A DNA stretch of 64,000 nucleotides from Cyanobacteria bacterium P01_A01_bin.123 (GTDB lineage Bacteria > Cyanobacteriota > Cyanobacteriia > Phormidesmidales > Phormidesmidaceae). Below are positions 22,356 through 30,183 of this stretch, piece by piece. The first letter of the stretch is position 1. Each line of letters begins with the position of its first letter. Under the pieces are notes generated by a model that saw only the letters and a program-made list of their open reading frames with translations, ran no database searches and was not told where the DNA came from. The position numbers and the translations under genes are program-made. The stretch is from positions 8,070 to 72,069 of the forward strand of contig JBCBZT010000040.1 of the NCBI GenBank assembly GCA_039815185.1, written 5' to 3'.

Positions 22356-22706
22356 ATGTCAGAGATTCAAAAGTTTGTGGTTAAGGATAACGGCGAGGAG
22401 TACGAGTTCTATATTGAACCGGGGGCACTTGCAGCCGTCGAAACGGATGAAGAGGGTGACTACCGCGACATCAGTTTGCCTACGATTGATATGAAAAAGG
22501 TGCACCAAACCATTCGCGGTTATGCCAGGTATGCCGTGGGTGCTTTTATTAACTTTGGTTTGGCTGAAATTGAAGAAATGAACCTAGAGTTCAACCTTAA
22601 GATTTCTGGAAAGGCGGGTATGCCGATTTTGGCTGAAGGATCTGCTAAAGGATCTTTCAAGGTTCAGGTCAAGTGTAAGTTCCCTGACAATGCAGCGAAG
22701 GGATAA
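22356..22706 (+). CDS. Trypco1 / CU044_2847-like small protease-associated protein
   Basis: 116 aa with C-terminal EE..LEF.LKI.G.AG.PILA.GSA...FKV.VK beta-rich pattern; immediately upstream of a protease gene. Confidence 0.7.
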   Translation: MSEIQKFVVKDNGEEYEFYIEPGALAAVETDEEGDYRDISLPTIDMKKVHQTIRGYARYAVGAFINFGLAEIEEMNLEFNLKISGKAGMPILAEGSAKGSFKVQVKCKFPDNAAKG

Positions 22707-22841
22707 AGTCTTGGGTTGCCCAGTTTAAGATGGGTCCACTTGATACCCCAACCCCACTCCATTGAAAAACTTGTTTGCAGTTTAAGGAAAAGCTGTGGGT
22801 TCGGGTGTGGCTAAGGCTTAGATTGTTTCAACATCAGGGTC

Positions 22842-25227: not shown

Positions 25228-28200
25228 ATGAACTACGACTACCAGGTGGGGGGCAGTTTGCCCGCCGATGCACCGAGCTATGTGAAGCGACAGGCGGATG
25301 ATGACCTGTATGAGCAGCTAAAAGCAGGCGAGTTTTGCTATGTGCTGAACTCGCGGCAGATGGGCAAATCGAGTCTGCGGGTGCAGGTGATGCAGCGTTT
25401 AGCCGACGACGGTGTGGCCTGTGCGGCCCTTGATCTGACCCAGATTGGCGGGGGGGCCAACATCACCGCTGACCAATGGTATGCCGGAATCGTGCGCAAA
25501 CTCTGGAGCAGCTTTCATCTGAGCAGCCAAGTTAACCTCCGCCAGTGGTGGCGCGAGCGGGATGAACTTTCTTCAGTCCAGCGGTTTAGTGAATTTATTG
25601 AAACGGTTTTGCTGACGGCCCTGGCTCAGCCGATCGCAATCTTCATCGACGAAATCGACACCATTCTCAGTCTGCCTTTCGCCCCAGACGACTTTTTTAC
25701 GCTGATTCGCAACTGCTATAACCAGCGGGCGGATAACCCTGCCTATCATCGCCTCACTTTCTGCTTTCTCGGTGTGGCTACCCCTGCCGATTTGATGCAA
25801 GACAAGCTGCGGACACCCTTTAATATTGGTCACGGGATTTCTCTTTGTGGCTTTAAGTGTGATGAGGCTCAACCGCTAATTCCGGGGCTCCAGAGCAATG
25901 CCGACCGCCCCAATGCTGTACTTGAGGCAATTTTGCATTGGACGAGTGGACAACCCTTCTTGACTCAAAAGCTCTGTTGCTTGGCGCGATCGCTGCCGTT
26001 TATTTCATCAGATCAGGAAAAGGAAGCGATTGGTCAACTGGTGCAAACCCGCATTATTGACAATTGGGAAGCCCAGGACGATCCGGAGCATTTGAAGACG
26101 ATCCGCGATCGCTTGTTGAGCAATGAAGCGACCCAGGGCCAACGGCTGGGGCTATATCAGCAGATTTTATCCGGTGAGGCGGTTCCGGCTGACAGCAGCC
26201 GTGAGCAGATGGATTTGCGGCTTTCTGGGGTGGTGGTGGAGCGCGATCGCAGGCTATACCCCCACACGCCGATTTATGCCGCGATCTTGTCTGAAGCTTG
26301 GGTCAAGTCGGCACTGGCGAATCTGCGTCCCTACAGTGAGGAGATTGAGGCTTGGTTGCAAAGCGACCGACAGGCCGATGACCATCTGCTGCATGGTGAA
26401 AAGCTGGAGGCGGCGTTGGAGTGGGCCGAATCGCGGAGTTTGAGCAAGCAGGATTATCAGTATTTGGTTGAAAGCCAAAAGCTGGGGTTGCGGCAAGAGC
26501 TAGAGCAAAGCAGAGCTGATCTCAATCAAACCAATCAACAGCTTTCAGAACGGAATCAACGTCTCCATCAGGTTGATCGTGATCTAGACAGCGCCAGACA
26601 TGAACTGAGCCAAGCGCAACGGTTTACTCGTCGGGCGACGAAAATAGGTGTGGGCGTAATTTGTTTTATGGCAGTGTGGGCGGCTGGCGCATCGGTTTTG
26701 ACAGGGCAACAGGTTGCCCAAAGGAACAAGGCTTATGCCGACAGGAACGAGGCTGTTGCCGAAAGGGACAAGGCTTATGCCGACAGGAACGATGCCTATG
26801 CTGACGCTACGAAAATGCGAGATGAAAATCAGGATCTACGCGCAGATTATCAAAAGATTGACAAGGAAATAACAGATGCCAGAGAACAATTGGCCGAAAC
26901 CGATGATGACTTACAGGCAACAAAAGGAGCCTTAGCGTCTGCGGAGGCAGACCTGACAGCGGCCCAAAGCGAGGCGGATAGGGCACAGCGCAATGCCGAT
27001 CAAGCCCAAGCCGCAGCCGATCAAGCGCAGAAGGAGGCTGATGAAGCGAAAAGAGCAGCTGATGAAGCCCAAGCTAAGGCTGAGAAAGCGCAGAGAGCAG
27101 CTGATGAGGCTAGCGATAGAGCTATACTACTGGGTCTCAATTTAGAGGATGTGATTCCGATGACCGAAGCGGTGATGGCATTTGCCGGCAAGGGGGCGGA
27201 AGAGCGTGCTGAGGCAATCGCACAACTTGACGAGATTTTAGAGAATAATCAATCAGCGGGGAATCCGAGAAACTCTACTGTCTTAATTGTGCGTGGTGAG
27301 TTCCATCGGCAAAACGACAACTATGATCTAGCGCTTCAAGATTTTGATGACGTCATTGCCATTGACGAGCGCAATTCTATTGCTCACTTTGGACGAGGCA
27401 ACACCTTAGCAGATCAGAAGAACTGGGAAGAGGCGATCGCGGCCTATGATAGGGCCATTGCTATTAACTCAGATTACCATCTAGCCCATATGAACCGAGG
27501 CAATGCTTTAGCAAGCAACGGTCAGTTTATTCAGGCAATTGAGGCCCATAATACGGCAGTCAGTCTAGTACAAGACGACCGAACAATTGCTAACCTAAGA
27601 GAAACCCTTGATAGCTTAATCGAAGTCTGGGCAGGGGGTGCAAATGTTTCGCTTGGGGCCAGTTTTGCAGGTACTGTGGGCGGAGATTCAAACGATAATG
27701 AGAATAGTTCAGAGCGTGACAACCGTGATCGTTTGCCAACAAATCGGTTAAGAAATACATTAAATTTAAATGAGAGTGATGCAACAGTCATTACAGTTAG
27801 CATCGACCTAATCGAGCTGTATGCTGATGGAAAAACAGCAACAGGGGTATGGCATTATCGAGGTTTTTCTGCCTTGATCACACAAAGCTATTCAGATGCT
27901 ATTGGGCATTTGAATTCGGCCCTCAGTGAGACCATCAGTCCCTCTCCGTCACCAGAACAGCAATATATTTCGCATGTTTTGCGTGGCATTGCTTACGGAC
28001 GCCAATCCAACTGGGAAGCAGCTATAAGCGACTTTAGCGAAGCAGTTGGCCTCAACAATGAATCGGCAATCGCTTATTACGAACGTGGCAATGCTTTCAC
28101 AGCCCAGGGAAATTTTGAGTCGGCCCTTGCCGATTACATTGCAGCTACCGAACGGGCTCCCCAAAATGACGCTTTCTTTCGCCAGCGGAATGAAACGCTC

Positions 28201-30183
28201 TTATCTCTCAGGGGGCAAGAAGGGGCGATTGCCGAGCTCACCCAAGCCATTGAGCAAAATCCCAAAAATTCCCTGGTCTACTATGCGAGAGCAAATTTTC
28301 TCACGTTCCTGGGTGGTATGGGTAATTTCGATGTTCCCGTTGATATTGCTAATCCTGAAGGTACGATCGAATTCAATGCTGATGAGACCATTGCCGACTA
28401 TACTCGCGCTCTCGCACTCAATGCCGACTATACGTTTATCTATCGCGATCGCGCCAATGCACGTCTTCGGCGGAGGGATATAGACGGTGCCATTGCCGAT
28501 TTTGGTCTTGCAATTGAGCTTAATTCAGAAGATGCAGCAGACCCATCCATCTACATCGAGCGTGCCCGTGCTTTCCAGTCCCAGGGGGATACAGAGGCAA
28601 CTATTGCTGATTACAACCGCGCGGTCGAATTAGCACCCCCAACCAACAGCTTTTATTATGAGCGAAACGATATGCTCCTAGAGCTTAGAGGTCCAGAATT
28701 GGCCCTAGCAGAACTGACCCAAGCCATCGAGCACAATCCCCAAGATGCCCTAGCCTACTATGCACGAGGCGATTTCCATCTGCTGACTGGTGATGTTGAC
28801 GGTGCTCTTGCCGATTTTGACCGAGCCATTGCCCTCAATTCTCAAATTGCATTCATTTATCGCGATCGCGCCAATGCTCGCCGAGCGTCGGGAAATATTG
28901 AGGGCGCTCTCGCCGATCTTGACCAAGTGATTGCTCTCAATCCTCAAGAGCCTGACTTGTATTTCGAGATCGCAAGTCTACGCCGAGAGCTAGGAGATGA
29001 AGCCGGAGCTCTGGCTATTCTTGACCAAGCCATCACCCTCAATCCCCAAAATTCAAACTTCTATTTCGAGAATGCCAATTTACGCCGACAGCGAGGGGAT
29101 ATAGAGGGCGCCATTGCTGTTATTGACCAAGCGATCGCACTCAATCTCCCAGATCCATACTTCTATATTGAAGCCGCCAATCTACGCCAAGTGCTAGGAG
29201 ATGAAGCTGGGGCCCTGGCTATTCTTGAGCAAGCGATCGCCCTCAATCCCCAAAATCCAAACTTCTATTTCGAGAGCGCCAATTTACGCCGACAGCTAGG
29301 AGATGAAGCTGGGGCTTTGGCTGTGCTTGACCAAGCGATCGCACTCAATCCTCAGAATCCATTGGTCTATATTGAGGCCGCCAATCTGCGCCAACAGCTA
29401 GGGAATATTGAGGAAGCCATTGCTGTGCTTGACCAAGCGATCGCACTCAATTCTCAGGAGCCAGACCTCTATTATGAGCGTGCCAGTTTACGCCGAGAGC
29501 TGGAAGATTTTGAGGGAGCTAGTGCCGATTTTGATCAGGCTACTGCACTTTCAACCCAAGGGCCATCCGTTGACAGCAACCCCGTAGATCCGTCTATCTA
29601 TTACGAACAGGCCAATTTCCTCTTTTCCTTGGGGGACATAGCAGGGGCCATTACTGCTTACACTCGCGCCATCGAACTCAACCCTGCAAATTCATCTGCC
29701 TATTACAGTCGCGCTAATTTTCTCTTATCTCAAGGGGATTTCCGGGGTGCCGTTGCCGATTTCAATCGCGTCATTGAGTTGGATGAAAGTGATACCTATG
29801 CGATCGCAGGTCGAGGGGAAGCTTATTACCAATTGGGACACTATGAAGAGGCATTGGCTGACTTCAATCATGCTATTGAAATCAATGGGAATAATGCCTA
29901 TGCGATCGCCAACCGTGGCGCAACCTATCTCCAAATAGGAAGTGACCAAGATGCCCTTGCTGATTTTGACCGTGCGCTCGAAATTACCAATGGTATCCTC
30001 GAAGAGAATGCGGAAGATTTTTGGGCGATCGCTGATCGGGGCAAAACCTATCGTTTCATGGGACACTTTGATGAAGCCATAGCTGACTTCAGACGGGCAT
30101 TAGAACTCGAACCCAATAACGCATCCGATAGGGCAGTGGTTCAAACAGAACTTGAAAAAGCCCAACAAGGAATTAGCCAATAG
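25228..30183 (+). CDS. AAA_35/STAND ATPase - TM - coiled coil - TPR repeat protein
   Basis: [37 protein letters not shown] and LLHG..L..A.EWA motifs; one hydrophobic helix; Ala-rich coiled coil; many TPRs. Confidence 0.9.
28921..29540 (+). repeat. 102-bp tandem TPR-coding repeats
   Basis: GACCAAG/GAGCAAG recurs at 28921, 29023, 29125, 29227, 29329 and 29431 (GATCAGG at 29533), an exact 102-nt period with high DNA similarity. Confidence 0.9.

Follow-up and report, generated by a model that had tools for sequence, protein, structure and literature searches.

To our knowledge, the bacterial STAND and NLR-like receptors that have been characterised consist of a single chain and detect phage proteins in the cytoplasm. 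In the Avs proteins, the effector, ATPase and sensor lie on one chain, and cytosolic phage proteins are sensed. Paired NLRs of plants and animals, such as RRS1-RPS4, RGA5-RGA4, the NRC helpers and NAIP-NLRC4, consist of two linked paralogous STANDs, one sensing and one executing. Here we describe a cassette of three genes from Cyanobacteria bacterium P01_A01_bin.123 (Phormidesmidaceae; assembly GCA_039815185.1), located at nt 22356–30183 of a 64,000 nt stretch of contig JBCBZT010000040.1 (positions 8,070 to 72,069, forward strand), the whole of which is referred to as the window. It encodes a small Trypco1 protein (gene 1), a caspase-TIR-ATPase fusion (gene 2), and a second, paralogous ATPase followed by a predicted membrane helix and a long TPR array (gene 3). 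The cassette probably represents a membrane-anchored, NLR-like cell-suicide system, in which sensor and executor are divided between two proteins and a pore former does the killing.

The cassette shares with Avs and other bacterial NLR-like systems the logic of effector, STAND and repeat sensor, a predicted ATPase fold like that of Avs3 and Avs4, and the use of TPRs as sensor, but it is made of two chains with two ATPases, and its sensor lies behind a membrane helix. It also resembles the paired NLRs in its two linked STAND paralogues, and its executor carries a TIR domain, as in plant TIR-NLRs. It differs from them in its independent origin (archaeal MNS-type ATPases are the nearest matches of the AAA_35 fold), in having as sensor a membrane protein with no effector, and in its head-to-tail genes, the pair often being translationally coupled.

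The name Trypco1 goes back to Kaur et al. 2020 (PMC7159879). The NTPase-centred conflict systems discussed in that paper, from multicellular bacteria, have many features in common with the cassette: Trypco1, trypsin or caspase, TIR, STAND, TPR or WD40 repeats, enrichment in filamentous cyanobacteria, and a constant-plus-variable logic. In that account Trypco1 is tied to trypsin and caspases to alpha/beta hydrolase, whereas in the cassette Trypco1 stands with a caspase, and the passages on these systems do not describe a paired A/B AAA_35 module. In a recent preprint, Evans et al. (10.1101/2025.11.14.688446) renamed Trypco1/Trypco2 as Pepco and described experiments on one Streptomyces member. 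This protein forms 9–10-mer beta-barrels that are stable to heat and detergent, the trypsin domain of the neighbouring Avs4 cuts a 2-kDa C-terminal tail off it after Ile97, and the truncated form is lethal to E. coli. According to the preprint's account of Pepco modules, a Trypco1-family protein of ~117 aa is encoded directly upstream of a gene with an N-terminal peptidase fused to a STAND-type ATPase, as is the case here, and the characterised trypsin-Avs4 is a single-chain receptor that senses the phage portal protein in the cytoplasm. The cassette departs from this scheme: its protease is a caspase, it has an inserted TIR domain, its receptor is shared out between two paralogous ATPases, and the tail of gene 1 is only ~6 residues long.

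A TIR domain and a caspase-like protease also meet in one bacterial death pathway in type IV Thoeris, where N7-cADPR made by the TIR protein activates the protease (10.1101/2024.10.24.620036, PMC13243611). Type IV Thoeris uses two separate proteins and a diffusible nucleotide, with no STAND ATPase, whereas in the cassette both domains are fused to the ATPase.

Gene organisation of the cassette

Three open reading frames (ORFs) occupy the same (+) strand of the window at nt 22356–22706 (116 aa), 22842–25139 (765 aa) and 25228–30183 (1651 aa), with gaps of 135 nt between genes 1 and 2 and 88 nt between genes 2 and 3. A sequence-only reading of this DNA had proposed three co-oriented genes, and their exact coordinates were confirmed. 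It had also given gene 2 a caspase His-Cys dyad, a TIR glutamate and Walker A/B motifs, and gene 3 a second AAA_35 ATPase with a very long TPR sensor and no effector; the motifs are present, and Pfam recovered all of the domains in both proteins.

Gene 2, the putative executor, has neither sensor repeats nor a membrane helix. Searched by sequence against solved structures at full length, it gave 0 hits at E ≤ 0.01, and its domains were then searched singly, with E up to 10. The caspase-like domain (Peptidase_C14, metacaspase-like; residues 3–223, nt 22848–23510) scores 77 bits with Pfam and 71.7 bits with the 'caspase' model of PADLOC. It contains the motifs FAGHGF at residue 87 (His90) and MDCCYAG at residue 140 (Cys142/143). 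His90 and Cys143 align to the GHG and DCC(H)SG motifs of the Trypanosoma metacaspase MCA2 (4afr, E 3.7e-4) and make up an intact His-Cys dyad. The TIR domain (TIR_2, 74.7 bits; residues 259–357, nt 23616–23912) has the motif VTKEV at residue 328, with Glu331 as the candidate catalytic residue. In a weak alignment (E 0.1), Glu331 matches the Glu of '...PQKEL', the alpha-C helix motif of the Paracoccus TIR protein 3h16; another alignment, to 7uxr and likewise weak, is off by one residue at this position. Of 16 aligned TIR domains, 15 retain Glu331, and the domain is 53–74% identical across orders. The C-terminal part is an AAA_35 module (residues 430–758, nt 24129–25115; 505 bits), here called type A, with Walker A (GKT) at residues 471–473 and Walker B (DE) at 562–563.

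Gene 3, the putative sensor, carries no effector domain. Its AAA_35 module, here called type B (residues 9–351, nt 25252–26280), has a much weaker Pfam score than that of gene 2 (101 bits), and lies in a region that is conserved to about residue 460. Walker A (GKS) is at residues 46–48 and Walker B (DE) at 141–142. The module is 46–75% identical to those of 21 relatives, and Walker A, Walker B and a GGQPF motif are invariant. It is followed by a predicted single membrane helix (residues 470–493, nt 26635–26706; Kyte-Doolittle scan), which is preceded by the sequence RFTRR. Next come a coiled-coil or alanine-zipper stalk (about residues 500–680, nt 26725–27267; Pfam Alanine_zipper at 575–632, E 3.6e-6) and an array of TPRs recognised by Pfam and Tandem Repeats Finder, which spans ~950 residues (about residues 690–1640, nt 27295–30147).

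Pairing of type A and type B ATPases

The AAA_35 proteins of this genome fall into six strong matches (type A, 406–508 bits) and six weak matches (type B, 75–108 bits), and five of the six A genes have a B gene within 3 kb. In 19 of 23 related loci, the gene immediately downstream of A, on the same strand, is a B. The remaining four comprise two that stop at a contig edge (L006, L022) and two that lack a B (L023, L024), giving 19 of 21 informative loci. The A stop and B start codons overlap or are no more than 4 nt apart in L016, L018, L019, L020, L021, L025 and L028.

The same pattern was found when our own A and B profiles were run on 25 genomes of 25 genera. A and B co-occur in the same 14 genomes and are both missing from the same 11. 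A B gene lies within 6 kb of 37 of the 47 A genes; in 33 of these the order is A then B, and in 26 the matched domains are separated by less than 300 nt. The partnerless genes, by the same 6 kb distance, number 10 of 47 for A and 9 of 47 for B, and up to six A/B pairs occur in one genome. A phylum-wide Pfam search detected the AAA_35 chassis in 45 of 151 cyanobacterial genomes sampled; the best 150 of its 297 matches are all of type A, and the pairing counts were taken from the 25-genome survey instead. These surveys agree with the sequence-only reading, which had described paired AAA_35 genes as common in cyanobacteria.

The window's A and B modules are 84–88% and 70–75% identical, respectively, to those of the pairs in L016, L018–L020 and L028, and only 39–60% and 46–50% identical to those of the other pairs in the same genome. 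As orthologous pairs are closer to each other than pairs sharing a genome, they appear to be inherited as units. The identity between A and B is only ~25%, and the pairing must therefore be old. The distances of A and B are correlated (Mantel r 0.62, reached in 0 of 2000 permutations, with nearest neighbours agreeing in 12 of 20 pairs), a result that is given little weight because shared species history alone yields such a correlation.

The two types are complementary paralogues: type A is an executor without a sensor, and type B a sensor without an effector. With their co-conservation and frequent translational coupling, this supports the split sensor/executor pair that had been proposed from the sequence alone.

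The other AAA_35 loci of this genome (L001–L005) vary in layout. On contig C32 a TIR-like-A is partnered by a B with three GAF domains, followed by a GGDEF gene; on C131 an A-GGDEF faces a convergent B-WD40; on C35 a short A has as partners a bare B of 382 aa and a B-WD40; on C119 the B-WD40 is upstream of a short A; and the A on C107 is solitary, with no B. The N-terminal ~110 aa of the short A proteins have no Pfam match.

Predicted ATPase fold and A-B complex

The A module was modelled by AlphaFold2 with high confidence (predicted local distance difference test (pLDDT) 91.2, predicted TM-score 0.89). In the model, a P-loop nucleotide-binding domain is followed by a helical domain with an invariant GGHP motif and by a winged helix. 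Type B has an invariant GGQP where A has GGHP; a GxP motif is a mark of STAND ATPases. Walker A conforms to GK[ST] in all 25 A and all 22 B sequences, and Walker B to D[ED] in 24 of 25 A (DE in 22) and to DE in all 22 B. The best Foldseek matches of the A module are the archaeal MNS-type ATPases 2qen and 2fna (TM 0.61–0.62), and later matches include ORC/Cdc6, Roq1, RPP1, Avs3/4 (TM 0.45–0.56), Apaf-1, CED-4, MalT and NRC proteins. The predicted fold of the A ATPase is STAND-like.

Co-assembly of the two ATPases, as the earlier reading had envisaged, was examined by modelling the A module (345 aa) together with the B module (460 aa). The ipSAE interface scores were 0.68, 0.69 and 0.67, while the best of three controls gave 0.00. 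Of 157 solved complexes, 116 attain the mark used for this score, as do 2 of 215 mismatched pairs; these counts hold only roughly here because our own alignments were used. At least 86% of contacts agree between runs, and the partner pLDDT is at least 86. The predicted contacts involve a conserved YWDEIFG loop and the next helix of A and, in B, both the stretch flanking Walker A and residues 65–109. The model supports, rather than demonstrates, binding between the A and B modules.

Gene 1 and its association with peptidases

Gene 1 (nt 22356–22706) belongs to the Trypco1 (Pepco) family, scoring 58.2 bits with PF19493 (cut-off 24.6) and 59.2 bits with the NCBIfam model NF041216 (CU044_2847 family; cut-off 23). 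Among the 23 related loci, Trypco1 is found upstream in five of the six caspase-type loci that have upstream DNA, in addition to the window. It is also upstream in the five of the seven trypsin-type loci that were scanned with Pfam; of the other two, L013 shows it in an alignment, and in L014 the position of the ORF is the only indication. The three TIR-only loci and the one cyclase locus lack it. Within this genome, four of the five Trypco1 genes adjoin a peptidase gene (two trypsin, two caspase). Trypco1 tracks the peptidase, whatever the peptidase fold.

The caspase-linked Trypco1 proteins form their own subgroup and are 76–92% identical to gene 1. In an alignment of 11 relatives, this group shows a conserved ...KVQVKCKFP followed by a variable tail of 6–15 residues; in gene 1 itself the last conserved strand is ...FKVQVKCKFP, and the tail has 6 residues. 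The low-confidence monomer model of gene 1 shows a helix at residues 46–65 and a long hairpin at 74–106, with an alternating pattern in NLEFNLKIS and SFKVQVKCKF; these features would suit a barrel that is hydrophobic outside and charged in its lumen, but are no proof of one. The barrel and its cleavage are extrapolated from homology, the monomer model being too poor.

Since the characterised Pepco family member is a pre-formed pore toxin unlocked by a neighbouring protease, gene 1 is by analogy probably the main killing effector, a protease-activated pore former and the substrate of the caspase. The earlier description of Trypco1 as accompanying proteases stands as far as the linkage to peptidases is concerned; the role of mere companion probably does not.

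Several other Trypco1 genes were noted. One (L031, G000:C120; nt 3571–3840, −) is divergent from a gene for an 1181-aa caspase-nSTAND1-pentapeptide repeat protein (nt 3856–7401, +), and is a further caspase-linked Trypco1, on a different STAND family. Another is part of a classical vWA-MoxR type locus (L029, G000:C130; nt 598–6683, −), where it is followed in turn by a trypsin-VMAP-M1-VMAP-C gene, a MoxR-like AAA ATPase, and a 969-aa protein with a C-terminal FGE-sulfatase (lectin-like) domain. A third lies upstream of a gene that joins trypsin to a PfkB-like kinase domain (L032, G000:C39; nt 648–2387, −). The fourth (L030, G000:C35; nt ~2443–2787, corresponding to C35:239442–239786) has no adjoining peptidase, and its neighbours are a glycosyltransferase and an ABC transporter.

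Topology of the sensor

Of 19 related B proteins, 16 have a single hydrophobic helix at residues 450–525. The other three are those of L008 (helix at residue 934) and L025 (several helices further on), and the second B of L017 (a seven-transmembrane module). The helix is also found in three of the five other B proteins of this genome, the GAF-bearing B and the short B lacking it. Lysine and arginine residues total 95 in the 15 positions before the helix and 51 in the 15 positions after it, with an excess before the helix in 17 of 19 proteins. This bias fits a cytoplasmic ATPase and an outward C-terminus. The strongest support for this topology is given by the modules that follow the helix, which are TPR arrays in the window and six other loci, WD40 in four, four PG_binding_1 domains and a SPOR domain in the relative L015, and a 7TMR-HDED receptor in L017. 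The stalk of gene 3 matches the alanine zipper family, which Pfam names after the major outer-membrane lipoprotein. Because a conserved membrane helix directly follows the B ATPase, the coiled coil and TPR array of gene 3 probably lie outside the cytoplasm. The proposal of a STAND-TPR receptor like Avs or NLRs holds for the predicted STAND-like fold and the TPR sensor; the location of the TPRs, behind a conserved membrane helix and probably extracytoplasmic, is unlike that of cytosolic Avs and NLR proteins.

The TPR part diverges faster than the ATPase part (28–35% against 70–75% identity). At nt 28917–29519 it contains recently duplicated 102-nt (34-aa) TPR units, detected by Tandem Repeats Finder with a period of 102 (5.9 copies, 74% matches) and of 204 (85% matches). 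The stalk has tandem repeats of 21 nt (7 residues) at nt 26713–26805 and 27019–27107, corresponding to KAYADRN-like heptads, and its length may be variable.

Exchange of effectors and sensors among related loci

The 120 protein clusters closest to gene 2 all have the TIR-A core. By hand count, 26 of them begin with a caspase (the window's own cluster among these), 33 with trypsin, 10 with CHAT and 3 with a cyclase; most of the others have no such domain. Cyclase-fused A proteins were seen in L023 and L026. The pair nearest to that of the window (L018; A 88%, B 75% identical) yet has no peptidase, and the caspase and Trypco1 are therefore an add-on to a constant TIR-A/B chassis. Swapping of effectors among paired AAA_35 loci, which the earlier reading had suggested surveying, is evident from these replacements on TIR-A.

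The sensor is exchanged as well. In L017 (nt 9492–17513, Thainema sp.), a caspase-TIR-A gene with an A module 84% identical to that of the window is followed by two type B genes, one short (535 aa, with two hydrophobic helices) and the other fused to the 7TMR-HDED receptor and an HD domain. Judged from its domains, this locus represents a sensor swap on an unchanged executor.

Other variants were observed among the relatives. In L024 (nt 981–7416, +; a Leptolyngbyaceae metagenome-assembled genome (MAG)), a type A module (80% identical) forms the C-terminus of a 1345-aa protein with a Macro domain; VMAP-C and MoxR-like genes precede it, and it has no type B partner. In L008 (Scytonema sp. HK-05), an IS605-type transposase (OrfB/TnpB-like) gene (nt 8380–9642, +) lies upstream of TIR-A, at the place of Trypco1 in relatives; the type B of this locus (nt 11561–17545, +) is 1994 aa long, with the membrane helix shifted to residue 934. 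The caspase-TIR-A gene of one MAG (L022, nt 10001–12306) is present as three consecutive ORFs (361, 139 and 312 aa), either a broken gene or an assembly error. In three Nostoc MAGs (L012–L014, nt 15207–17741, +), an 825-aa papain-family (Peptidase_C1) protein is encoded directly after the B-WD40 gene, and may be a further member of the cassette.

Genomic neighbourhood and comparison with defence models

The neighbours of the cassette in the window are a solute-binding protein, a histidine kinase, DUF6714, two small unassigned ORFs and an E2 acyltransferase. The protein adjoining the cassette on one side (nt 21307–22065, −) has Cys_rich_CPCC and DUF6714 domains, and on the other flank the ORFs at nt 30201–30638 (−, 145 aa) and 30734–31297 (+, 187 aa) have no Pfam or PADLOC match. 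In the 23 related loci, the surroundings of the cassette contain no counterpart of the eight genes that flank it in the window, save for weak paralogous-family hits, so the genomic position of the cassette is not conserved between genera. A consensus scan for promoters and terminators found no more sites than in shuffled sequence (7 versus 7.8, and 8 versus 10.3), and the operon structure therefore rests on comparative gene order alone.

PADLOC (PADLOC-DB 2023) gave only single-domain matches in the cassette, and none for either ATPase (E ≤ 0.001) or for any neighbour; as had been predicted, it reported no known system. Membership of three described systems was rejected. The cassette is not an Avs system, as effector and sensor are on separate proteins and no PADLOC Avs model matches either ATPase; nor a vWA-MoxR (VMAP) system, the locus having no vWA, MoxR or VMAP component; nor type IV Thoeris, as caspase, TIR and ATPase are on one chain and Thoeris profiles match the TIR only, below cut-off.

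Discussion

The reading we find reasonably probable is that of a cell-suicide system of three genes, anchored in the membrane, with sensor and executor split and the Pepco pore as killer. It is built on the domains, whose motifs are intact, on the conserved association of A with B and of Trypco1 with peptidases, on the predicted STAND-like fold, and on the model-backed contact between A and B. Gene 3 would act as the receptor, with its ATPase in the cytoplasm, one helix through the membrane, and the stalk and TPRs outside. A cue on the TPRs, either phage or envelope damage, would switch on the B ATPase, which would then assemble with the paralogous A ATPase of gene 2. This assembly would cluster the N-termini of gene 2, allowing the TIR domains to form an NAD-cleaving or signal-making site and the caspase-like domains to be activated and to trim the short C-terminal tail from the gene 1 protein. 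That protein, a pre-formed beta-barrel, would then open a pore in the membrane and kill the cell; in a filament, kin would be protected.

A bolder form of this reading is offered tentatively: an outward-looking receptor, in which a membrane-anchored STAND surveys the periplasm, co-assembles with a cytosolic TIR-caspase ATPase and unlocks a pore protein. Such a layout would be nearer to a Toll-like receptor with its TIR adaptor than to a cytosolic NLR. In filamentous cyanobacteria the periplasm is continuous between cells.

A number of observations weigh against the suicide system. With respect to gene 1, the AlphaFold2 monomer model is unreliable (pLDDT 42.5), the caspase locus L020 has no Trypco1, and in L017 the Trypco1 gene is inverted. 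The characterised Pepco pairs with trypsin, and caspase-linked Trypco1 proteins are only 15–28% identical to trypsin-linked ones, so the cleavage site and pore activity are extrapolated. For the receptor, the helix of the window is at the score threshold (Kyte-Doolittle 1.64; 1.6–2.7 at the same position in relatives). The A+B model was scored without A-A or B-B homodimers, and its pass may reflect a likeness to solved STAND/ORC oligomers rather than a specific heteromer, as A and B are paralogues of a self-associating class of ATPases; the enrichment of conserved residues at its interface is mild (by hand count, A 12 of 28 versus 29% overall, B 16 of 39 versus 30%). The cassette is also surrounded by housekeeping genes and not by defence genes, the conservation of its A, B and TIR domains (53–88% across orders) is unusually high for defence, and sister pairs with GGDEF, cyclase and GAF domains fit ordinary signalling equally well. 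Because of these other pairs, the A/B family as a whole is not clearly immune; the effector set of this locus is typical of conflict systems.

The last three observations are also those that favour a general trans-membrane signalling role, in which B reports the state of the envelope or periplasm (cell wall, filament integrity, development) and the output is proteolysis, NAD turnover or programmed death and not phage defence. The sister pairs combine second-messenger outputs with small-molecule sensors (A-GGDEF with B-WD40; TIR-like-A with B-GAFx3 and GGDEF; cyclase-fused A), one B has peptidoglycan-binding and SPOR domains, many pairs occur per genome, and none of the housekeeping neighbours matches PADLOC. 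As a full account of the window locus it nevertheless seems unlikely. A repertoire of caspase, trypsin, CHAT and TIR domains plus a pore protein of the Pepco type is typical of conflict systems, effector and sensor are exchanged between close relatives, the genomic position differs between genera, and the TPR part, with its recent repeat duplications, is much more divergent than the ATPase part. The two views may be combined, with the A/B family a general trans-membrane signalling device and the window locus its death-dealing version, the trigger of which is not necessarily phage.

The constant presence of TIR beside every peptidase variant of the family, and the precedent of N7-cADPR in type IV Thoeris, would also accommodate a pathway in which TIR acts upstream of the caspase and a nucleotide signal activates the caspase in the same or other molecules. 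This is improbable. The caspase is fused directly before the TIR, leaving no room for a separate signal-binding domain; TIR-A proteins without a peptidase are common; trypsin, CHAT or cyclase replace the caspase at the same position, and no specific coupling of TIR and caspase is needed; and the Thoeris models match only the TIR part, far below cut-off (ThcB4 of Thoeris type III, 36.5 versus 220 bits). Activation of both domains by proximity is the simpler reading, as both are fused to one ATPase.

That genes 2 and 3 are independent paralogues from a tandem duplication, gene 2 being a sensor-less, constitutively controlled effector and gene 3 an unrelated membrane scaffold, is very improbable despite the partnerless genes of the 25-genome survey, the solitary A of this genome, the 88-nt gap and the lack of operon support from the promoter and terminator scan, given the fixed order of A and B across cyanobacterial orders at ~25% identity, the overlapping A stop and B start codons in several loci, the perfectly matching presence and absence of A and B in 25 genomes, their complementary domain sets and the passing complex model.

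On the suicide-system reading, the division of labour in the cassette would work most like that of paired sensor/helper NLRs. Its parts were already known, Trypco1, caspase, TIR and STAND from Kaur et al. 2020 (PMC7159879), and the association of Pepco with a protease from the Pepco preprint (10.1101/2025.11.14.688446). Literature searches on AAA_35/PF14516 and on paired or membrane-anchored STANDs found no description of the A/B pair and no experiment on it, although Fig. 5A of the Evans preprint may draw a similar gene order. What is new, within these searches, is the paralogous A/B pair with a membrane-anchored, probably outward sensor, combined with TIR, caspase and Pepco.

To the single-chain cytoplasmic receptors of bacteria, the cassette would add a division of sensor and executor over two paralogous ATPases, parallel to but independent of the paired NLRs of plants and animals, and a sensor on the far side of the membrane. 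It would join three death devices (TIR, caspase and the Pepco pore), and extend the association of Pepco with proteases from trypsin to caspase partners. As the A/B chassis is abundant and its outputs are interchangeable, it offers a natural system for studying NLR-like partner choice and effector swapping. If the receptor does look outward, the cell could react to phage at the envelope stage, or to damage signals from neighbouring cells, before infection is established.

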